Source: Octopus vulgaris (taxonomy: Eukaryota). From it: a stretch of DNA of 64,000 nt. Location: contig OX597816.1 of assembly GCA_951406725.2 (NCBI GenBank), forward strand, positions 113,522,001 through 113,586,000. The letters are read 5' to 3'. Positions within the stretch are counted from its first letter, which is position 1; each line of letters opens with the position of its first letter. Below are positions 12,500 through 61,942 of this stretch, one piece after another. Made by a program: the position numbers and the translations under genes. The notes beneath the pieces were generated by a model. The model saw nothing but the letters and a program-made list of their open reading frames with translations. It did not search any database and was not told the DNA's origin.

Positions 12500-13010
12500 G
12501 GCATAAAATCCTTCAGGTTTAGAAGTAAAGAAACACTCAATATCATTTCAAGTCTCTCTACAATTAATAAACTGTTTCCCCACTAAATAATGTTGCAGTT
12601 ATCTGAAAAGAGGATAATAAGATGGATTCAAGGTCAGAAGAGTAAGGAGGATGAAGCAAAACTTCCTTATTGTGCCATAAACCTTTTCCTCAGTGGCTGA
12701 AGCAATCTGTAATTTTGCATTATTTTGTAAGAGCAATATCTCTGTCTGACTGACCAATGATGAGTACTTTTCTGCAAATCTTTGTGCAGTGCTTCCAATT
12801 GATGAGAGTACTTCTCCACATTAATTGTTTCATTTTGGTTTATAACTTCAATACAGATGACACCCTTCAAATCACCAAACACAGAGCATTATTTTTTGAG
12901 ATGGATTCTTCTTTTTCATTTGATGCTAACGTTAGTTGTTCCTTTTAGTTATGATTGTAGAGAACCAACTTTTCATCAATTGTGATAATTTTGCAAAAAG
13001 TGGAGACTTT
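12500..13010 (-). mobile_element. Mariner transposase fragment, decayed
   Basis: Minus strand reads GVICIEVINQNETINVEKY..QL and VLLHPPYSSDL, homologous to the mariner DD34D domain. Confidence 0.75.
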
Positions 13011-15097: not shown

Positions 15098-16266
15098 GGC
15101 TGACCCAAAGAATGTATATACAATTTAATAGCTGATAACTCACCTAATTTTAATTTCATTTTATATGTAACACATTAGAAATTACAAAGCTTTTAACAAA
15201 GAAAATTTGTCTTTAAGTGTTACTCGAAGTTTGAAAATGCATTCAAAGTACAAAGATAGTTTAGGAGGGAGTTTTATACAGATTCACTTAATAAACTTAA
15301 CATCAATCGAATTGAAGATAAGATTGAAGTAGGACATGTTAAGAATGGCCACAAGAAATGTTCAATGAATCCTACAAAGCAACAAATTTTATCAGAAACA
15401 TACTGCCAGAGTTCAAGAAAACCTGTGTGGCAAGAGCATCATGAGATAGGAATTTCAAAATCAAGTGCTTTTATTATAAAAAGTACATTCCAAGAATAAT
15501 TTTGTTCTCAATGAGGATGATCCAGACCAAAGAGAGAAGTTTTGCAAATTATACTTTGTAAAATATGTAGAAGATGCACACTTTCCGTTGAAATTGTTTG
15601 GAGTGATGTGGCTAGTAAGAAGCTGAGAATCTACATATTATGGATGAACATAATGTTAATTTATCAGGATTTACTGTATAGTGCAGCTTGTCATCAAAAG
15701 GATTAAATGGACCATTCTTTTCTGATGGTACTGTGACTGGTCCCATTTACTTGAACTGGCTGTGATAATTTGTCATGCCTAGTTTTTAACAGTAATTTGA
15801 AGAGTGAAGTTGTATTTCCATCAGAACAGGGCACACCTACAGTATCATAGTAATGTAAGGGCCTTGTTGAGATTTTGCCAAATAGGTGGATTGATAAAAA
15901 GTTTCCATAGAATAACCTCCACATTCACTGAATCTCATACCACTAGATTTTGTTTATTTATGATGATACTTAAAAAATAATGTTTAGAATACAAAACTGG
16001 CTACAGTCAATGAACTGAGAGCAGCCATTGAATGAGAAAGAACAGAAATACTGAATGAAAGTTTCGTGATGTTTGTGATTCTATTGCTTTGTTTTATATG
16101 CAGTGCCTCAACCAGAATAGTTATCCATTTGAAAACAAGCATTCATAAAAAAAAAACAACTAAATTCTGCCTGTTGTTCCTATTAAATTTTGAAAATGAA
16201 ATGTATTTTAATAAACACTGATTTATAATCATTCAATGTGTGTATACATGCTTTTGAAACATCATA
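15095..16266 (+). mobile_element. Tc1/mariner-superfamily element, heavily decayed
   Basis: Remnant motifs LNEDDPDQREKF, IVWSD, GPFF, LPNRWI, PPHSLNLIPLDF, TVNELRAAI; imperfect TIRs (aaagaatgtatataca / tgtgtatacatgctttt). Confidence 0.7.
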
Positions 16267-16405
16267 TATACATATATATATATATAGTAGGTACTGCAAA
16301 TTTAGGGTGAATACTTGATAAGTGTAAGCACCTGGATACACCAGATAGTAGCAGAGGTGAGAGAGAATATATCAAATAAAATCAAAAACAGAACACAAAG
16401 GATAT

Positions 16406-16498
16406 TGCGGTACACGTGTTTCAAGCTTTATAAACAACCTGTTCTTACATCAGTGTATAATAGATATAAAAGATGGTTTAAAGCTCTCTTCAGCTGCA
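16406..16498 (-). ncRNA. Type I hammerhead ribozyme (left arm copy)
   Basis: Minus strand TGCAG-CTGAAGA-GAGCTTTA..TAAAGCTT-GAAA-CACGTG-TA-CCGCA; one stem I mismatch. Confidence 0.8.
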
Positions 16499-16892
16499 TA
16501 CATTGTTATTCCAAAGAGTTACATCACACCATAAAAAATATGGAAAGTACATGTAGTATTACCCATTATAATAGGTATATCATATCTCCTTGAGAAGGTG
16601 TATTTGTAAAATTTCGTAACTTTATAACTGTATAAGGGTTCATTGGATTTTGAAAATCTGTCCATACTGTATCACCAGTCAACATAGAGTCATTCTGTAA
16701 TTTTGCATTATTTTGGTGATACAGTATGGACAGATTTTCGAATTCCAATGGACCTTTATACAGTTATACAGTTACGAAATTTTACAAATACACTTTCTCA
16801 AGGAGATATGATATACCTATTATAATGGGTAATACTACATGTACTTTCCATATTTTTTATAGTGTGATGTAACTCTTTGGAATAACAATGTA

Positions 16893-16985
16893 TGCGGCTG
16901 AAGAGAGCTTTAAACCATCTTTTATATCTATTATATACTGATGTAAGAACAGGTTGTTTATAAAGCTTGAAACACGTGTACCGCA
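16893..16985 (+). ncRNA. Type I hammerhead ribozyme (right arm copy, intact core)
   Basis: TGCGG-CTGAAGA-GAGCTTTA..TAAAGCTT-GAAA-CACGTG-TA-CCGCA; predicted cleavage after GUA at 16980. Confidence 0.88.
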
Positions 16986-17265
16986 ATATCCTTTGTGTTC
17001 TGTTTTTGATTTTATTTGATATATATATATATATACACACATATATATATATACACATATACATACATATACATACATATATATATGCATATATATTTTG
17101 TCTGTAAAAAACATAAATCCAAAAGAAGAAGCAGACTCTGGGCCAACAGATTTTGGGATTTGATGATATGCCATAAAGCTAAACCCTTTATGGATGTGAA
17201 ACCTAACGTAATCCCATAGACCAGCTTTCCCCATTTTAATATGTATAAACACACACACACACATA

Positions 17266-19345
17266 CAGGCTGTGGTGAGTATATTGTTGTCTAAATTACA
17301 CAAAAATGAAAATAACACTGACATCTCATTTTAACATATATTTACCAAAATTATATAAAAGTATCTTGAAATATTAGGTTGTCAAATATGAAATTTGTAG
17401 AAAAGAAAAAAAAGTTTGTTAATGTTTTATAAATACAAGGAATAGTTTTATTCATCAAACTATGCACCCATATTGTCAATACACTTTTGCCATTTCAGCT
17501 GTAGCTTGTCCAACCTGGAATTGTAAAAGCCTGGCAATAAAAGCCTGGCAATAGAGCCAATAAAATTTTGGAAGTCCTGTTTTACAGCATCTTGGAATTA
17601 AATCTTTTTCCTATCAAAAAGTTATCCAAATTCTGGAAGAAGAGGTAGTCAGTAGGGGCAAGATCAGGTGAGTATGATGGATGATGGAGAACTTCCAACT
17701 CCAACTCCTGTAGTTTCGCCAATGTCATTTTTGCGATGTTTTGCAATAAAATAGGAGTGGATCTGTTGAGTAATTTAAGCTGGTTTTTTTGTTTTGTAAG
17801 TTTCTGTATCATTTGGTCCAGTTGGCTGCAGTATGCTTTGGCCATGATTGATGAGGCAGGTTTAATGAAATCATAATGGATCACGCCTGTGCCACACCAC
17901 CAAACACACACCATCAGCTTCTTTTGATGAAGTTTGCTTTTTGGACTGTTTTGGTAGCTCGTCTTTGTCCAACCATTGTACTGAACATTTACAGTTGTTG
18001 TACTAGATCCATTTCTTGTCACATGTTACAATTCGATTCTAAAATGATTCATTTTTGTGATGAGAAAGTAGCATAATGCAAGGTTCCAAACGTTGCTGTT
18101 TCTGATTTTTATTGAGTTCATGTGGAACCCACTTATCCAACTTTTTCACTTTACCGATTTGAACTAGGTGAGTCAATATTGTTTGCTTGCAAACACCAAA
18201 CAACAACGATAATTCACGGGGACTTTGAGATGGATCTGACTCAACAATGGCTTTCAGTTCGTCATTATCCACCTTTCTTTCTGGTCAACCGCATTGCTCT
18301 TTTGTGAGGTCAAAGTTACCAGAACGAAATTTTGCAAACCAATTTGATACTGTCTGCTGTGTAATAACATTAGAATGTAATACTCCATTTATATTCTGAG
18401 CTGTCTGTGATGCTGTATTTCCAAGAAAGAACTCTAAATGAAAATAACAAAAAATGATATATAAATACTTTATAAAGTACAAAATCAGTTAGAATAAAGA
18501 AACAGATGTGTCAGCTTTCTAACCAAAAGTAAAGATTGTCAAAATATAATAATGACACAAAATGAGCAGCTGTCAAAGTTTACCAAATTTCATACATGAT
18601 GACCTAATACTAAAGAGTAAATTCATTCAATAAAATTGCCATTGGCTTCAATCATGGCCTCCAGATGACTTTGGAATCTCCTGCTACTCTTCTGGATGGT
18701 CTCCTTGTTTAAGTTGGTGAATGCTGCCATAATCCTTGCCTTCAGTTCATCTCTGGTATTACAAGGAGTTTTGTTGATCTCTCACTTAACTGTGCCTCAC
18801 ACAAGGTGGGGTTGCAGTCTGGAGAGTTAAGTAGCAAGATGTTAGGGGTGATGTGATTGCAGAAATTGTCTGACAGCCATGACTGGGTTCTCCTGCTTGT
18901 GTAACATGGTGTAGAGTCCTGTTGCCAGACACAAAGTCTTCCAGCTGTGACCAAGGGCAGCACTACCTCCTGCTGGCACTTGATGTAGGCCTTTGTGTTG
19001 AGTTTGAAGCCGTGTGGGAAGATGAATGGAGGCATAACATCGTCATCACTACTGATCACTCCAAACACCATGATGTTGACTAGATGTTTGATTTTTATCA
19101 CTCTTGGTATATGTTTTGGGGACACAGTAAGATAACAGATGTTCTGTGTGTTCACCATCTGAATGCCAAGCAGTACAGCATGTTGTTTCCAAATTTCTGG
19201 CAGCATGAATTGCGCTATGGTGCTGTTTTTCTCATAGATCATGCCCAACTGACCTTACTATTCTGTGAAGTTGACAAAATCAAAAACAATGTGTATGTGT
19301 GAAATTAAAAATATAAAATGGTGACAATTTACCCACCACACCCTG
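17266..19345 (-). mobile_element. Tc1/maT-like DNA transposon (internally deleted), interrupted by a mariner
   Basis: TIRs caggctgtggtgagtatattgt (17266) and acaatttacccaccacaccctg (ending 19345); ORF 18742-19248 has MVFGVISSD..MPPFIF, WQQDS.P, NSPDCNP. Confidence 0.85.
17374..18607 (-). mobile_element. Full-length mariner element, ~1.23 kb, transposase pseudogene
   Basis: TIRs ttaggttgtcaaatatgaaatttg / caaatttcatacatgatgacctaa, TA on both sides, WVPHEL and YSPDLAPTDY motifs, frameshifts. Confidence 0.93.
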
Positions 19346-19364
19346 CATATATATATATATATAT

Positions 19365-20975
19365 GAATGAAAAATGGAGTTAACGCAGGTTTAAACAAGT
19401 ATTTTTACTTTCTACATATGTTTAAAAAATTCCACTGATACTTATTCAAAAGAATAAAAGGTATAAACAATGCAATCTTCTCTTCGGGAAAGTGAAAAAA
19501 CGAAACTTGTCAATACGACATTTTAGCAAAGAATGATGGATTCATATAGCGATAGACAGAACGCTATTAATATCGTTTAAAAAAAACGTTATATGATATA
19601 ACGTCATAAGTAGCTAACAGAAAGAGTAGGGATATTAATAGTGAATGTTAAATATAAAGGAAATTAAAGTCTAAACTATATATAATGATAGAGACTACTT
19701 ATATGCACTAAAAGTATGTTTCTGCCAATGCTTACATCTGTATGCTCGTTCTATAACCGTGTTTACTAGAGTATTTTTAGAAAAAAATAATGAAAAATAG
19801 CTCAGAATTGCAGAGAAGACAGAATTTCTTGCCTTTGTCATATGATATCGAAATTGAGAGGATCAACCATTCTAAATGAAATTGTTCATTGTGGTCTTTT
19901 AAATCCCAAATCAGTTTGCTGAGACCGGTACTATTCCGTTTATTTCTATCCCTAAATGTTGAGTAATGGATAGAAATTCTCTTAGATAACTCTAACGATG
20001 TGCTTCCAATGTAAAATCGTACTTTATTACGAGTACTGATTATACACTGGTATATAGAATTTTTAATCTTAGAGTTACTTGACATAAATTTAATTCTATT
20101 GGGATTGACTTCAGATACAATAACCTTGTTATTAATATTTCTAGAGGGTTGGATGGTAGTAGCTAAATTAATGTTAGTATTAGTAAATGTATTAATATTT
20201 AACAGTTTGTTATTATGAGAAGATATAATTTGCAAGAGATTTTTTGTGTTTGAAAAACCTATCCTAACCTTATGTGAATTAATTATAGAGTAATATCTAG
20301 AATTATTTGGAAAATTCCTAGCAATAGCTTGACGAAACAGCAGTGGGAGATTAGATTTAATTTGTCTCCCGTAAGGAATTATTAACCAAATATTTTTACC
20401 AGTATTCATAGCGTAATTACTTTTGAAGGTGTTATATTTACTTTTAGATCGGTAATAGGGGAATAAATAAGGGTTATCTGCCTTCATTCGCTTTGTATCG
20501 GTGCGTAAGTTATGTTTGTTATCAATAATTCTTTTACGACTAGAAATCTTATCTACATTATTGAATTTACAATTAGACTGAGCAGAATCAATGTAGAAAA
20601 TTTTTTCTGTATAACCTGCTTTGATTAAGGCAGAGTTATAGAATTCAGCGTTATTATTGAAAATATCAACATTAGCAGATAATTTAGATAATCTAAATGA
20701 AATATTCTTAACTAAATTCTTAGTAATTGCTCCAGGATGATTACTAAATTTGCTAATGTACTTAAGATTGGTCAACGGTTTATGATATGGGAAGTAAGAG
20801 TCACTGTGTAAATTAAGCGTAATATCTAAAAAGTTGGCCTTCGTCAGATCGTCATCAAAAACGATTTTTAAGCCCATTCTACTGAAAAAATTAACTAAAC
20901 TGTTCTTAACTTTTTGTACCTTTTGGTTGGAAACATTTTGGAGGTAAAGTAAACAATCATCACGATATATATATA
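19365..20975 (-). mobile_element. Penelope-like retroelement (Naiad-like), 5' truncated: RT C-terminal half plus GIY-YIG endonuclease
   Basis: 401 aa ORF with YRDD, NFLDITLNL, PYHKP, SNHP, SIYQC..FYIGST, STGLSK..W.LK and C-terminal CLLC. Confidence 0.9.
19407..19493 (-). ncRNA. Hammerhead-fold motif in the 3' UTR of a PLE, core variant or decayed
   Basis: ACTTTC-CCGAAGA-GAAGATT..long hairpin..AATTTTT-TAAA-CATATG-TA-GAAAGT; perfect 6 bp stem I, but U4C and G12U substitutions. Confidence 0.65.
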
Positions 20976-21060
20976 CATACACTTATCCTGTACATTTTCT
21001 TAAAATAACTCTTTGCTATAACCCTATAAATGACCTTTCATGTTGGTGATTGCACCCACC

Positions 21061-21134: not shown

Positions 21135-21479
21135 CCTCTCTCTCTCTCTTTCTTTCTCCCTTTCTCTTTCCCTCTCTCTCTCACCAGAAAACTTTCACTT
21201 ACTGGACATCCAGTTGCCCCTCCCCTTTCTCCTCTTCTATTGCTGCCCTCTCCTCTCTCTCCACCTGTCCTTAGACTAACTAAACTAGATAGTAGCCCAC
21301 TTACTTTCTTTTTCTTCTTTTTGCAGCATTAGTAACGCTTCTCCCACAAGGCTCATAGTGCTTATATTTACAGTGCCCCAAACACTTTCATATACAATGC
21401 TTCCTCACTACCCCCCCCCCAGTAGAGGTAACTACCTTAACAACTCTAACATGTCTGAATGACGGTAGATTAAAAGCAA

Positions 21480-24400
21480 GAACAACTATTATGACGCTTG
21501 TTACCAAACATTCATGGGATCCTTCTTTACAGGTACTGAATAACATCTCTCCTTCCTGTGTTACCTCCCATATCTCTTTCCCAGTTTTCAGAGTTAGCAC
21601 TCTAAATGTAGGCACATTGAAAGGTAGATCTAGCAAGATTGTAGAGATGCTTGAATGGAGACATGTTGATGGATGTTGTGTACAAGAGGTAAGATGGAGA
21701 GGAGCTTCAACCAGAGTCCTCACAGGTAAAGCACATAGGTATAAACTCTTCTGGGAAGGCAATAGTGATGGAATAGGAGGTGTGAGCATACTTCTTGCAG
21801 AGAAATGGGTGGATAAGGTTGTAGAGATTGTGAGGATGTGCAATAGAGTACGTAATCTCAGGCTAGTCTTGCAGTATGGTATAGCTACAATTATATCTGC
21901 CTATGCCCCACCAGCAGGCCTACTAAATGAACAGAAGGATCACTTTTATGATATTCTTCTGCAGGCTTCCTCAAAGACGAGTGATAATGGTCTCATCTTT
22001 GTGGCTGAAGATTTTAATGGGCATGTCAGACAGCAACCTGGTATCTTCCATGGTGTACATGGGGGCCATGGAGTTGGTACCAGAAATGAAGAGGGAACTA
22101 GGCTCCTGGAGTTCTGCAATGCAAATAACCTATTGATCTGCAACACAAAATTCAGGAAGCCAGCTAGCCACCTGATAACCTATCAATCAGCTTACTCTGC
22201 TAGTCAGATAGAGTTCATTCTCACCAGACAGCAGGATGCATGGTTACTCTTTAAATACAAAGACCCTCCCTGGTGAAGAATGTACCCTCCAACATAAAAA
22301 TGTGCCCTTTTAAAGCCTAGCCAGGCTCATGGGCCTGGTTTCCTGGTTTCTGTGGTGTATGTGTTCCCTAGCTGGATGGGATGCCAGTCCATCACAGCGT
22401 TACTCATTTTTGCCAGCTGAGTGGACTGAAGCAATGTGAAATGAAGTGTTTTGCTCAAGAACACAATGTGTCACCCGGTCCAGGAATCGAAACCACAATC
22501 TTACGATCATGGTGCTGACACCCTAACCACTAAGCCATGCACCTCTACACCCTCCAACATAGACTAGTTATTATTGACTTTAGACTCAAGGCCAGAAGGA
22601 TGCTAAAAACCAGACCAATCTGGAAAAGAAGGACTTGGAAGCTTAGGAACCCTTCACATGGTCAGAGATTTAGGGATATCTTTACCGAGAAATTTGATGA
22701 TAGGGAGGAGGAGCTTCAGTCCTGTGACATAGAAGGCAAGCTGGGAATTCCTGCGAAACAGCTTGCTGAGTGCCACAGACCAAATCTGTGGCTGGTGCAA
22801 AGTCCCTTCCAGACCTTGGGTAACATGATGGTGGAACAATACTGTAGACAGGGCTATTAGAGCAAAGAAATAGGCCTGGAAGAGTGAGGGTAGGAGGAGA
22901 ATGTATCAGATAGCCAAAAGGGAAGCTAAGACTCATGTATATATAGCCAAGGGAGTAGCAGAAAAGAAGAAGTTTGCCAATGTTCAGGGATGTGTGAACC
23001 AGAGAACTAAAGTATTTCAGATTGCAAGACAGTGTGTGAGAGAAAACCGTGATAGAAGAGAAATGTGTCCACATGGATGATGGTGCCCTAGCATTTAATG
23101 ATTCTGCAAAGAAAAAGGCTTGGAGAAGCCATTATGAAAGACTGCTGAATGTGGAGAATGAATGGGAGGAGGAGAGTCTGCCAAAGGTTGACCCAATTGA
23201 GGGACCAGCTACCCGAATCAACAGTACCCAGGTAGATAAAGCAATTAAGGATGTGAAGACAAGGAAAGCACTTGGCCCATCAGGAATCACTGCTGGGATG
23301 CTTAAAATATTGGACAGTGTGGGTTATGGTCTTGTCATCCACATTGTAAATCAGGTAGTTCATGATAGAGTCATTCCCAAAGACTAGTGTAGCAGTACCA
23401 TAGTCAACTGCTTTAGATAGAAATAACTACAAGGGTATCAAATTATTGGGTCAGGTGATGAAAGTTACAGGGAGGGTCATAGCCCAACTAATTATGAAGA
23501 AAGTTAACCTAGATGAGATGCAGTTTGGTTTTGTGCCAGGCAGAAGCACTACTGATGCTATATTTCTGGTGAGGCAACTGCAGGAGAAATACCTAGCCAA
23601 AGATAAACCTTTGTACTTGGCTTTTGTTGACTTGGAGAAAAGCTTTGACAGGGTTCCCTGATCCCTTATCTTGTGGTCAATGCAGAAACTGGAGACAGGT
23701 GAGTAAGATAAATGGTAAGAACTGTACAAGCTCTGTACAGGGACACTGTCAGTAAGGTGAGGGTTGACAATGAGTATAGTGAAGAATTCCGAGTAGAAGT
23801 AGGGGTTCACCAACGATCAGTCCTCAGCTTCCTCTTATTCATTATAGTCTGTCAGGCAATAACAGAGGAATTCAAGACAGGCTGTCCCCGGGAGCTCCTC
23901 CATGCTGATGACTTTGCACTAATAGCTGAGTCACTGCCAGAACTAGAGACGAAGTTTAGGGCGTGGAAGCAAGGTCTAGAATTGAAGGGCCTTAGGGTTA
24001 ACCTAGCCAAAACCAAAGTCTTAGTGAGTAGGAAGTCTGTCAAATCACAACCCACTTCAAGTACATGGCCCTGCTTGATCTGTAGAAAAGGCATGGGTAG
24101 AAACTCCATATGATGTACCTGGCGTGAGCTATGGACACATAAAAGGTGAAGCAATATCAAAGGAAAATAGTTTTTGAGTGTGGCAGATGCGCTGGTGCAA
24201 TAAACACTGAAGATGTACAGAAAGCAGTTTCCATCACATGCCAGTGGAGGAAACTAGAAGTAGTTAATAGCTCCTGCTACCTAGGCAACCAAGTCTGTAG
24301 TGGGGGTGGTTGCTCTGAGAGTGTAGTGACTAGAGTAAGAATAGCGTGGGCAAAGTTCAAGGAGCTCCTACCACTGCTGGCAACTAAGGGCCTCTTGCTC

Positions 24401-25260
24401 AGGGCGAAAGGCAGACTATATGATGTATGTGTGTGAACTGCCATGCTACACGGCAGTGAAGCATGGGCCATGAATGCTGAGGACATGCATAGGTTTGAAA
24501 GAAATGAAACTAGTATGATCCGCTGGATGTGTGATGTCAGTGTACATGCACAACAGAGTGTAAGTGCCCTGAAAGAAAAGTTGGGCATAAGAAGCATCAA
24601 ATGTGGTGTGCAAGAGAGGTGTCTGTGCTGGTATGGTCATGTGTTACATATGAATGCAGACAGCTGTGTGAGAAAGTGCCACTCCCTATCTGTAGAAGGA
24701 ACCTGTGGAAAAGCTAGACCCAAGAAGACATGGGATGAGGTGGTGAAGTATGACCTTTGAACATTAGGCCTCACAGAGGCAATGACAGAGACCAGGACTT
24801 TTGGAGATATGCTGTGATTGAGAAGACCTGGCAACTAAAGTGAGATCGCAGCCACACACATCCAGCCCTGTTTAGAATACTCCCGATGCATCAGATGATA
24901 TGATATGTTTGAGAAGACCTGTTGAGTCAAGTAAAACCAATATTGTAGCTGGGGCTGGTGCCCACTCACTGGCTCCCATGCTGATGAGACGTAAAAAGCA
25001 CCGTCTGAACGTGGTCAATGCTAGGTCTGTCTTACTGGCTCCGGTGCTGGTGATGCATAAAAAGTACCAATCGATCGTAACCAATGTCAGTACCCGCTAC
25101 TGGCCTCTGTGCTGGTGTCATATAAAAAGCACCATCTGAACATGATCATTGCTAGGCCTGCCTTACTGGCCCCTGTGCCAGTGGTACATAAAAAGCACCC
25201 ACTACACACTTGGAGTGGTTGGTGTTAGGAAGGGTATCCAGCTGTAGAAACTCTGCCAGA
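21480..25260 (+). mobile_element. RTE-clade LINE, near full length, decayed (APE endonuclease, RT, Cys-rich finger, 3' UTR)
   Basis: LNVGTL, VQE, SAYAP, DFNGH, NEEG.RLLEFC; QFGFVPGRSTTDAIF, FVDLEKSFDRVP, GVHQ.SVLS, HADD; WPCLICRKG..NSI; GKARPKKTW; stops and frameshifts. Confidence 0.93.
22297..22548 (-). mobile_element. SINE family 3 inserted into the RTE with a 13 bp target-site duplication
   Basis: TSD ACCCTCCAACATA at 22284-22296 and 22549-22561; A box TGGCTTAGTGG and B box GTTTCGATTCC on the minus strand. Confidence 0.92.
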
Positions 25261-41391: not shown

Positions 41392-41802
41392 ATATTGTTG
41401 CATTTTGGGATGGTCATTTAAAAAAGTTTTTTGCCAAATAAACACATACACTATATATTTGTTCTTCACTTGTTTATTACTGTTCTTATTTTAACTCATG
41501 TCCATTGTCTAGAAATCTTTCATCATACATCCGTGAGCTCTTCAGCAGCACTCTCCATCCTCATGTGTGTGTCCCTGCTCACCTTAGTTCTTTCTTTTCT
41601 TCTATATATAGAAGAATAGAATGGATTAGGCAGAGCAGGAGCACACATGAAGATGGGGTGTTGCTGAAGAGGTCACAGACATATAACAAAAGATTTCTGG
41701 ACAATGGACCTGAGTTAAAATAAGAACAGTAATAAATGAGTGAAGAACAAATATATAGTGCATGTGTTTAAAAAAAATGACCATCCCAAAATACAACAAT
41801 AT
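41392..41802. repeat. Diverged fold-back inverted repeat (~200 bp arms) centred on tctatatataga
   Basis: atattgttg.attttgggatggtca... mirrored by ...tgaccatcccaaaatacaacaatat; third arm copy at 43053-43206. Confidence 0.9.
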
Positions 41803-43208: not shown

Positions 43209-43594
43209 GGCGCAGGAGTGGCTGTGTGGTAAGTAGCTTGCTAACCAACCACATGATTCCGGGTTCAGTCCCACTGCGTGGCATCTTGGGCAAGTGTCTT
43301 CTGTTATAGCCCCGGGCCGACCAATGCCTTGTGAGTGGATTTGGTAGACGGAAACTGAAAGAAGCCTGTCGTATATATGTATATATATATGTGTGTGTGT
43401 TTGTGTGTCTGTGTTTGTCCCCCTAGCATTGTCAACCGATGCTGGTGTGTTTGTGTCCCCGTCACTTAGCGGTTCGGCAAAAAGAGTAAGTACTGGGCTT
43501 ATAAAGAATAAGTCCTGGGGTCGATTTGCTCGACTAAAGGCAGTGCTCCAGCATGGCCGCAGTCAAATGACTGAAACAAGTAAAAGAGTAAAGA
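43209..43594 (+). mobile_element. SINE family 1, full-length and well preserved
   Basis: A box TGGCTGTGTGG, B box GGTTCAGTCCC, internal TA/TG repeat, tail ..atgactgaaacaagtaaaagag; many CpGs retained. Confidence 0.92.
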
Positions 43595-43611
43595 GAGATG
43601 TATATATATTC

Positions 43612-43800
43612 TTTTATTCTTTTATTTGTTTCAGTCATTTGACTGTGGCCATGCTGGAGCACTGCCTTTAGGACTTATTCTTTCTCAGCCTTGTACTTAA
43701 TCTATCAGTCTCTTTTGCCGAACCGCTAAGTTACGCGGACTTAAACACACCAACATCGGTTGTCAAGCGATGTGGGGGGGGGGGGAAACACAGACACACA
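43612..43800 (-). mobile_element. SINE family 1 3' half, inverted relative to its neighbour
   Basis: Reverse complement of 43410-43590. Confidence 0.88.
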
Positions 43801-44274
43801 AATATATACATATATATATATATAAATATAATGCATGTGTTACTTTTGACTGATTTCTCAGCTTTGTTAGTGTATCATAAATATATCTTGTAGGTTTTGT
43901 ACTTGCAATTTAAATTGTGATTTCAAAAGCTTTCTTTTATCCTTTCAGTATCCCATAAATAAAATACAGTCAAGTACTGGGTTTGATAGTACTGACTAAC
44001 ATCCCAAAATTACTGATTTCATGCCAGAGACAATTATTATTCTGCATACTAACAAGAACATTTCATTCTTCTACATGCTCACATGCATGCCCACCACCCC
44101 ACCATGCATATTATTCATTTGTGCTAATTCAGCGAGTGGTAAAATGATTCATGTATATTGGATCCTATGTTGACAGAAGAAATGGTACCAGTTAAATTTC
44201 TTTTTCTGTTTACTTCTCTTCATTTTAACAGATACAACAGTTATAGCTAAAAAGACTTGTTAGTCTGTCTTCTG

Positions 44275-59250: not shown

Positions 59251-59424
59251 ACCACCAAAAAAGGAAGGAAAGAATACAAGCACAAACATAAAGAAGGAAG
59301 GGGAGAAAAAGGAAAAGGAAAAATGAAATAACTAAAACCGGAACCCCTAAACCACCAAACAAAAAACAGAAAACTCAAATATGGAGGCTCCAGTGGAATC
59401 CGAAACCTTACTGAAGAGAAGAAA

Positions 59425-60775
59425 TTTGGAGTGAACTCCAAATTTGCTGTGGCAGGGACTGTCTAACACAGCTCTTACACCACATTGAGGATATACTTAA
59501 AGCCTTGGGAACAGGTTCAAACTCTGATGTCATATATCTTGACTTCAGTAAAGCGTTTGACAGGGTTGACCATAATATCTTACTTTCAAAATTGGCAAAT
59601 GTTGGAATCTGTGGAAAACTTCTACACTGCAATGAGTATTTCCTGGCGAATAGAACACAACATGTTGTGGCTGATGGAGTCCACTCAAGCCCAGCAAAAG
59701 TCACCAGTGGTGTCCCACAGAGAACTGTCTTGGGCGCGTTCCTCTTTATAATCTACATAAATGACCTTTCCAGCGTCGTAAATCACTGCAAACTGAAAAT
59801 ATTTGCTAATGACACTAAGCTCCAGCAAATCATCAATGAAGAAGACCGAACTCAACTCCAGTCTGATCTATATGTGGTGAGTCAATGGGCAAACAAAAAC
59901 AAAATGCAACTAAACGAGGGAAAATTTGAGCTGATGCATTTTGGAAGAAAGACTATACTAAAAGAGCCATACTCTCTTCCTTCAGGGGAACCTCTCACAG
60001 CATCTAATAATATCAGAGACCTAGGAGTAATTGTTGATAACAATCTCAGTTGGAGTGCCCACATCAACAATAAGGTTGATATAGCTCGTAGGATGAGCTC
60101 CTGGATCTTAAGAACCTTCCAGTCCAGAGAAAAGGTGTCATCATTTCTCCTCCTTTGTACAGCCACACCTTGAACACTGCTGTCCCTTGTGGTCTCCCCA
60201 TACCAAAAGAAACATCTTGAAAATTGAATTACCCCAGGGGGCACTCACTAAAAGAATTAAGGGCATGACTGATCTCGATTACTGGGACCACATTAAAGCC
60301 TTGAAACTACTCTTTCCAGCACCGCCACGAGCAGTACATCATTTGCACGATGTGGAGAATATACTGCCAGTATTGCCCAAATGACCTGAACATTAGCTTC
60401 AAGGTTCATCCAAGGCTGAGACTATGATCAATATGTCCCCTGCACAATTCAGTATCACAACATATAGGTACTCTGTGACACAATTTCTTTTCCTCAACAG
60501 GCCTTGCCCTGTTTAACATTGTCCCAAAACTGATCAAAAAGGAAAAGGATCCCATCACCTTTAAATGGAGTCTAGACAAATTTCTTCAAGGAATACCAGA
60601 CAAGCTACCCATACCTGGATACAACTCACTCAACAAGAACTCATTACTTCAATGGACCATGATACCACAAAACTTGACTTAAAAAGGATTTAAGTAATCC
60701 TATCAGGTGGTGCTATTAAGTTACACATGGCTTGGACCAATCTTTGGTCGAAGCATATCTAAGTATCATCTAAGT
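59425..60775 (+). mobile_element. CR1-type LINE RT fossil with intact 3' end
   Basis: DVIYLDFSKAFDRVDH, SGVPQRTVLG, FANDTKL, IRDLGVIVD.NLSW, WSPH; ends in repeated atctaagt. Confidence 0.93.
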
Positions 60776-61048: not shown

Positions 61049-61323
61049 TGGTTTCTATTTTTAGCAAGTTAATGTAGTAAAATAATTCAATATTCCTAAA
61101 TTAATGTATAGATATATTTCAGATAATTTCACAATCAATATTTTGGTATAAGTTATGATATGCTTTAGATAAGTTGTTAAGTAGTCTGAGTCAGCATAGT
61201 CATGTTTAGCCAACTGAAAGTTGGCTTAGCAGCTATCATACATTTGTAGAGATGTCTAATTCTAATTTGTAGTCCTGAAAGTCACTGAGGAGTTTGTTGG
61301 AGAAGATTTTACTGTTTGCATCA

Positions 61324-61582
61324 TGGAAGGTGTTTATAAGCCATTTAAAAACACACAAAAACTATTACATTTACTTCAACATTTAAATTTAATTTGTCAA
61401 AATATTTTCATTGCTTTGAAACCACGACCTGTTCACTGACAAAATTCTGTGCTGCACAGAATTTTGTCAGTGAACAGGTCACAGTTTCAAAGCGATGAAA
61501 ATATTTTGACAAATTAAATTTAAATGTTGAAGTGAATCTATTGGTCTTTGTGTGTTTTTAAATGGCTTATAAACACCTTCCA
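61324..61582. repeat. Fold-back palindrome, 129 bp arms with a 1 nt centre at 61453
   Basis: tggaaggtgtttataagcc...ttctgtgc-t-gcacagaa...ggcttataaacaccttcca. Confidence 0.96.
61463..61513 (+). ncRNA. Candidate variant hammerhead (G3-C8 core); mirror copy 61393-61443 on the minus strand
   Basis: TTTGTCA-GTGAACA-G-GTCAC..GCGAT-GAAA-ATAT-TT-TGACAAA. Confidence 0.55.
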
Positions 61583-61942
61583 CGCTGTAATTGTTTTTGT
61601 GTCAGCACACGATCTCAGATCAGGTTACTTGCTATGCCTGTTCATCTCTGTAATTTTACTGTTTCATAGATGAAAACAATAAACTATGCTGAAGCATTTT
61701 TTGTTGACTGGAGAAAAACTCCTAAATTGACTAAAGCCTTACAAACTTGTCAGTTGATTTTAAAGAATCATTGAAATTCTGAACTACTATCATGAATAAG
61801 CTAGACTTTGTAAAATAATACAACCTAAAGTAGAGATTGCATTATGCTTTGGACATAGAACAGTGTCATTGAGTTTCATAGTAGGAAGAGTAGAAGTGTG
61901 TTTTGAGCCTCTTGTTATGAGAGTGTATTTTACCCATTATTT

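Follow-up and report, generated by a model that had tools for sequence, protein, structure and literature searches.

The inverted repeat at 16367-17024 of the window (the whole 64-kb stretch of DNA analysed here) is likely what remains of a single event in which an endonuclease-bearing Penelope-like element (PLE) inserted into a (TA)n microsatellite. It would consist of two head-to-head copies of the element's end, joined by 25 bp of filler, and the hammerhead ribozymes that these copies carry are predicted to be off. Membership of the PLEs is likely when judged from structure rather than from a defining protein: head-to-head inverted 5'-truncated copies, a tail at one end and a microsatellite target are all present. 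With a hammerhead near the 3' end as well, these traits uphold the Penelope-like origin that the preliminary description of this DNA had proposed. In EN+ PLEs, the end repeat adjoins a frame for a PLE reverse transcriptase plus a GIY-YIG endonuclease. No such frame linked to the family was found, the arms contain no long open frame, and metagenome scans with two patterns returned no matches (0 and 0).

Architecture and borders of the fold-back

In an inverted-repeat comparison, the two arms (311 nt each) aligned without gaps, with nine mismatches and 36 nt between them, and this pair was the longest inverted repeat listed for the 64-kb window. The 658-bp fold-back reported in the preliminary description, with 311-bp arms, nine mismatches, no gaps and a 36-bp spacer, was thus recovered as such. 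The divergence of the arms is 2.9%, which supports the young origin claimed earlier and suggests a fairly recent event. As to extent and flanks, the (TA)n tract on the right was found where it had been described, but (TA)n also adjoins the insertion on the left, and the insertion itself extends beyond the left arm to about 16287, spanning approximately 740 bases (Table 1). Within the tail of the left copy, 16298-16366 is firm; some contigs align to 16292, and 16287-16291 is assigned from the TA border. The spacer is made up of 13 bp of family sequence and 23-25 bp of filler. A target-site duplication is unreadable inside (TA)n at this insertion, the same difficulty that has been noted for PLEs (PMC8557442).

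Table 1. Features of the insertion and of the likely filler donor (window coordinates)
Feature	Position	Strand	Basis or remark
Likely filler donor	12703..12727	+	Inside decayed mariner transposase (minus strand), ~4 kb away
Left (TA)n tract	16262..16286	.	Sequence; likely half of target microsatellite
One-sided 3' 'tail' of left copy	16287..16366	-	Bridging contigs and TA-rich loose ends
Left arm, element 3' end, short terminus at 16367	16367..16677	-	Arm comparison and contig loose ends
Left type I hammerhead	16406..16498	-	Stem I broken at 16495 (CpG context)
Family sequence (13 bp), left copy only; left copy 5' end at 16690	16678..16690	-	Contigs
Junction filler, likely copied from host DNA	16691..16715	+	Match to 12703-12727
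Right arm, 5'-truncated copy, stops at short terminus	16714..17024	+	Arm comparison and contigs
Right type I hammerhead	16893..16985	+	5-bp stem I, 8-bp stem II, 48-nt loop II, palindromic 2-bp stem III
Right (TA)/(CA) microsatellite	17019..17097	.	Sequence; likely other half of target

The G+C content of the window varies between 24 and 45% (2-kb steps), and dispersed repeats are plentiful. Together with an Octopus sinensis protein as the sole homologue of a nearby frame (see below), these features make an octopus the likely host. A second fold-back is located at 61316-61590 (137-bp arms, 12 mismatches, 1-nt spacer); it is MITE-like and without a hammerhead by our descriptor. Short-spaced inverted pairs of abundant dispersed repeats, 75-80% alike, occur at 41392-41802 and 43372-43830 and are possible hairpins. 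Two LINE remnants were observed as well. In one, at 21359-24760 (+), reverse transcriptase-like pieces come after a frame that resembles an endonuclease (Exo_endo_phos_2 below cut-off); the other, at 59415-60173 (+), has an RVT_1 frame.

PLE inverted structures are known to trouble short-read assemblies (PMC8557442), and a single copy folded back during library preparation or assembly would give a palindrome of this kind. Such an artefact is extremely unlikely here, however, in agreement with the earlier assessment. The arms differ at nine positions, the termini are different on the two sides, and the unique flanks are not inverted. Moreover, at six of the nine mismatches (including a stem I pair of the hammerhead) the majority in the DNA sequencing runs described below equals the right arm, which keeps the family letter while the left arm departs from it; two are in CpG context, and the other three mismatches have no listed row.

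The filler is identical to its likely donor at 24 of 25 positions, and the next best match in the window reaches 18. The best of 300 shuffled windows gave 21 of 25, and none of the 65 25-mers taken from the arm matched elsewhere at that level. The last two letters of the filler (TG) are common to the start of the right arm. We infer that 16691-16715 is templated filler at an end-joined junction; for LINE-1, end-joined inversion junctions and templated insertions have been described (PMC11702581). The mariner around the donor was recognized by Pfam as Transposase_1 (E=2.3e-8, 12562-12999 read with X at stops). Since the donor is itself a transposon, a close sibling of it elsewhere could be the true donor. 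Decayed mariner pieces were detected at 12560-13000 (-) and 17582-18025 (-), both matching Pfam Transposase_1 and weakly similar to each other. No listed contig bridges 16691-16713, and the depth of the 16690-16705 bin is about that of 16690 alone, so that the junction was not recovered in independent DNA from these contigs; lack of cover is in itself no proof either way.

Other copies of the family and the origin of the inversion

Contigs of four of the 24 listed public runs (X1, X2, X6 and X15) were aligned to 16290-16750, that is, to 461 bases that take in the left flank, the left arm and the spacer as well as the first 37 bp of the right arm. X1, X2 and X6 are DNA runs of three coded organisms; none of the listed runs is on record as RNA, and X15 is only guessed to be RNA. 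With a fraction of 0.48 of the sampled words in the best run, the runs may come from species different from that of the window, and letters that seem shared could belong to a subfamily. The numbers of aligned contigs were 1264 (X1), 1127 (X2), 662 (X6) and 145 (X15). The contigs of X15, together with an empty read-end table, are uninformative on expression or cleavage. In X1 the summed depth was up to 2.3e5, compared to 24-62 for single listed contigs; this depth is not a copy number. These values indicate that the family is very abundant.

The segment 16298-16366 belongs to the family, as shown by contigs that bridge 16292-16435. Among the loose ends listed (24 of 275), TA-rich ones were found before 16367 in 12, 24 and 8 contigs (X1, X2 and X6, respectively) and before 16298 in 11, 15, 7 and 1 contigs (X1, X2, X6 and X15). 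The family thus has two (TA)n-joined 3' termini, at 16367 and 16298, in all three DNA-type runs; the right arm uses the short terminus and the left copy the long one. At 16406 and 16543, the two arms agree with each other while 88-100% of the depth has a different letter. Letters common to both arms would fit one source copy.

In a single PLE insertion, the element protein would have cut both strands within one (TA)n tract, whose two parts are now at 16262-16286 and 17019-17097. Reverse transcription primed by one DNA end would have begun at the long start and produced a copy with the tail, from 16287/16298 to 16690; the other end would have primed at the short start, producing a copy from 17024 back to 16714. 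Both copies would have stopped early and would then have been end-joined via a short stretch templated nearby, with 2-nt microhomology. Studied in purified form, a PLE protein cut as well as extended the two DNA strands, and the distance between its two start sites for reverse transcription defines the tail (PMC11167929). An adjoining inverted 5'-truncated copy, a one-sided tail of 30-40 bp and a bias for (TA)n were reported for PLEs, and Penelope-13_HM has an inverted copy with hammerheads on both strands (PMC8557442). Head-to-head is the commonest inverted form of PLEs, and host DNA can be captured between pLTRs (PMC3846280).

An alternative to priming from two DNA ends is that one cDNA folded back on itself, which gives the same product. 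Self-priming with fold-back was proposed for rotifer PLEs (PMC3846280); on its own, however, it leaves unexplained why the right arm stops at a terminus used family-wide. Models for how the inverted ends of PLEs arise compete, with self-priming (PMC3846280) on one side and two-strand cutting with two start sites (PMC11167929) on the other, and an abundant family of this kind could decide between them by junction counts. The locus described here is a clean case: its short and long termini, the shared diagnostic letters and the traceable filler fit a double-primed, end-joined insertion. A single copy changes little, being a known by-product of Penelope-like integration.

In all four runs, contigs align to 16690 and then continue with shared letters that are not those of the window (4, 11, 7 and 2 contigs in X1, X2, X6 and X15). 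From these shared other letters behind 16690, other copies extend further 5'. Opposite-strand joints were found elsewhere at 16350/16499, 16386/16421, 16620/16690 and 16363/16690, each in a single contig, and joints at a likeness under 95 need caution. Some contigs (X1, X2 and X15) align within 16640-16690 and diverge left of 16640/16642, as if a second family or subfamily shared this segment.

Two of the four joints share position 16690, a coincidence not expected under random truncation. This raises the question of whether the mobile unit could be a short non-autonomous RNA, derived from a PLE and about 400 nt long, that begins at 16690, at a start site within the pseudo-LTR, and yields fold-backs when copied from both cut strands. 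Such an RNA would be a single-arm form of the retrozyme-like unit in the preliminary description. The fold-back locus itself and these two joints share the 16690 end. In addition, the sense strand at 16690, read with the letters of the loose ends, resembles by eye the initiator-like TCACT of a rotifer pLTR (PMC3846280). The arms, being without coding trace, fit such an RNA, and non-autonomous PLE derivatives are known (PMC8557442; bioRxiv 10.64898/2026.07.22.740005). Nevertheless, we consider this origin unlikely. The copies that run past 16690 in four of four runs count against a fixed 5' end, alignment to the examined stretch must stop at 16690 and may pile joints there, each joint at 16690 comes from one contig, and there is no head-to-tail tandem at the locus. 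A fuller version is improbable too. In it, the family would move as a short non-coding hammerhead RNA that always begins at 16690 and has two sites for 3' priming; one complex would copy it from the two cut strands simultaneously, and end-joining with locally templated filler would close the gap. If an RNA with a fixed end at 16690 were indeed at work, the many copies would document in vivo how the inverted ends and tails of PLEs arise, and the genome would be seeded with long hairpins feeding A-to-I editing or small-RNA pathways. The A>G / T>C variant counts of X15 (11/9) are no higher than those of the DNA runs (14/10, 11/8 and 15/11) and are uninformative on A-to-I editing.

Hammerhead motifs and their predicted activity

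As stated in the preliminary description, each arm carries an outward-pointing type I hammerhead motif, and its anatomy was recovered. The right copy is complete, with CUGANGA, GAAA, UH and stems I-III. Stem I is formed by TGCGG (16893-97) and CCGCA (16981-85), the core by CTGAAGA (16898-904) and GAAA (16969-72), and stem II by GAGCTTTA (16905-12) and TAAAGCTT (16961-68), with G.U as its first pair. The palindrome ACACGTGT occupies 16972-79, and the cut is predicted after A16980, which is 39-44 nt before the short terminus and places the type I hammerhead near the 3' end. Apart from a G>A at 16495, which breaks the second pair of stem I, the left copy matches the right one; the pairing letter is present at 16495 in 95-98% of the contig depth.

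A search of the window for hammerheads, as recommended in the preliminary description, succeeded with the descriptor and failed with Rfam. The descriptor gave one intact match in the window, compared to one match across 200 shuffled windows (both strands). At the gathering score, Rfam returned no matches in the 64 kb; to E=10 around the element, it returned 20 matches, none of them a hammerhead and most of them microsatellite-driven miRNA models.

Variation among the aligned contigs was unevenly distributed along the ribozyme. Among the 40 of 75 variant rows listed, no variant place falls within the core, stem II and stem III (35 nt). Loop II, with its 48 nt, has eight (Fisher p=0.01), and there are 31 in the 348 nt that lie outside the core and stems of the ribozyme (p=0.045). 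A core and stems II and III without listed variants would fit selection on the ribozyme in the source copies, which is not the same as covariation. At 16406, the fifth pair of stem I, the listed variants, which are unphased, include a one-sided change (U.G vs U-A). Extra helices predicted in loop II received no support, as none of the variants listed for this loop is accompanied by a listed change in its partner. X6 and X15 each have one contig that departs from the arm at 16454 with an identical 255-letter loose end, perhaps another insertion in loop II of one copy.

The predicted folding energy of the whole fold-back is -510 kcal/mol, and those of the ribozymes are -20.0 (right) and -13.8 kcal/mol (left). 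For the right copy as a monomer, the predicted pair probabilities are 0.007 for stem III and 0.036 for stem I, so that it would need a same-sense partner. The duplex of ACACGUGU is predicted at -10.3 kcal/mol, and together with the stem III value this agrees with the need for a dimer put forward earlier. No same-sense hammerhead partner was found in the 64 kb, which hold one motif per strand. We propose that the hammerhead is the normal 3'-end ribozyme of the family, predicted to be dimer-dependent for stem III. In published experiments, PLE minimal hammerheads showed no activity as monomers and weak activity as dimers (PMC4209133), and the PLE hammerhead of anole required protein and was dispensable for insertion in vitro (PMC11167929).

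On the plus strand, arm-arm pairing at the right core is predicted to reach 0.99998 before stem II can close, an equilibrium prediction like all folding figures given here. Transcripts initiated within the fold-back would escape the hairpin. On either strand, transcription reaches the antisense arm first (the order on the minus strand follows by symmetry). The preliminary description had suggested that transcripts could switch between self-cleavage and a double-stranded RNA hairpin. This is unlikely because the hairpin is predicted to form first, the left stem I is broken and a same-sense partner is missing from the window. In the fold-back setting, neither ribozyme is predicted to be active. 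Given that a 311-bp hairpin would form first in read-through RNA, the fold-back is most likely a fossil without activity, which at most supplies double-stranded RNA passively.

These predictions also bear on whether the 658-bp structure is itself a mobile unit. A fixed fold-back family of the MITE or retrozyme kind, mobile as an intact hairpin and with an RNA that switches between cleavage and duplex, would account for the long near-perfect arms, the TA on both sides, and the core and stem II that are unchanged in both arms. It is nonetheless very unlikely. The tail is present on one side only, the filler matches a locus 4 kb away, and other copies continue past 16690 or invert elsewhere; in addition, the duplex would be in place as soon as the right core emerges, and the left stem I is broken. 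The earlier view of a 658-bp, retrozyme-like unit is not supported, on account of these other copies and of the missing head-to-tail tandem at this locus. A MITE or fold-back DNA transposon was rejected on the one-sided tail, the other inversion points and the locus-matched filler, as against symmetric terminal inverted repeats and one inner structure common to all copies.

Comparison with known systems

For PLEs, the literature already contains head-to-head truncated copies, one-sided tails and (TA)n targets, as well as pairs of hammerheads on opposite strands (PMC8557442; PMC4209133; PMC3846280). Novelty of the arrangement is not supported: in Schistosoma mansoni, dual motifs on opposite strands, 100-700 bp apart and like the pair in the fold-back, were reported in 2014 (PMC4209133). 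In the literature on octopus Penelope hammerheads, we found no description of this family, which may already be catalogued in Repbase or Dfam. The metazoan PLE hammerheads of the minimal type with a palindromic stem III resemble those found here in their stem II of 7-8 bp, stem I of 4-5 bp, short palindromic stem III and dependence on dimers (PMC4209133). In contrast to them, the pair at 10.1-11.1 is G.U and not G-C (8-bp register), and loop II is long.

Among PLE clades, Hydra-clade members such as Penelope-13_HM and Hydra-1_Obim share the insertion into (TA)n and a hammerhead near the 3' end that is followed by a U-rich stretch (PMC8557442 S1, S2). Some rows of the hammerhead table also have the core ctgaagag + tgaa and a stem III of acac/gtgt (PMC8557442 S2). 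A canonical 3'-end hammerhead and a (TA)n target, compared by eye with the same table, are not unique to the Hydra clade, which is also characterized by protein motifs (RWK, DKT, no CCHH, CxC linker). Loop II, with 48 nt, is outside the range of 3-10 nt given in the Hydra-clade table, and Hydra-1_Obim was rejected as parent since its hammerhead has other stems. None of six element motifs occurs in the available text of the PMC8557442 supplement, where one strand was compared and line breaks may hide matches. The Naiad clade was rejected too, having no canonical hammerhead, whereas core and three stems are complete here; with Naiad_Ovul and Naiad_Omin, as far as their sequences are available, only the 11-mer CTGAAGAGAGC at the frame start is held in common, which we take as chance.

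The window contains a PLE remnant with a C-terminal endonuclease at 19345-20982 (-), including 19777-20982, that resembles Hydra-1_Obim by eye and has no Pfam match. Its frame has one homologue, the misnamed Octopus sinensis 'myb-like protein I' (58% identity), and none of 3424 candidates was a longer homologue of it. The segment 19777-20982 was rejected as parent of the fold-back, with a DNA score of 28 compared to 38 +/- 7 for shuffles and no protein match to the arm.

Metazoan non-LTR retrozymes are like the element in being non-coding, about 300-400 bp long and PLE-related, with a type I hammerhead (PMC7229834; bioRxiv 10.64898/2026.07.22.740005). They form head-to-tail same-sense tandems that release monomers and circles (PMC7229834; bioRxiv 10.64898/2026.07.22.740005), whereas the opposite-sense pair described here cannot do so. 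Retrozyme identity was rejected for this locus, with one motif per strand and no same-sense tandem in the 64 kb.

A close likeness is to the insertions of EN+ PLEs, which have head-to-head copies of the 3' end, a one-sided tail, a microsatellite target and a hammerhead in the end repeat (PMC8557442; PMC3846280). In contrast to these, both copies are cut to 311-404 bp with no coding frame left, the tail of 69-80 bp exceeds the published range of 30-40 bp, and a 25-bp filler from nearby DNA sits at the inversion. Overall, little sets the insertion apart from the known PLE pattern beyond its longer tail, its long loop II and the traceable filler.
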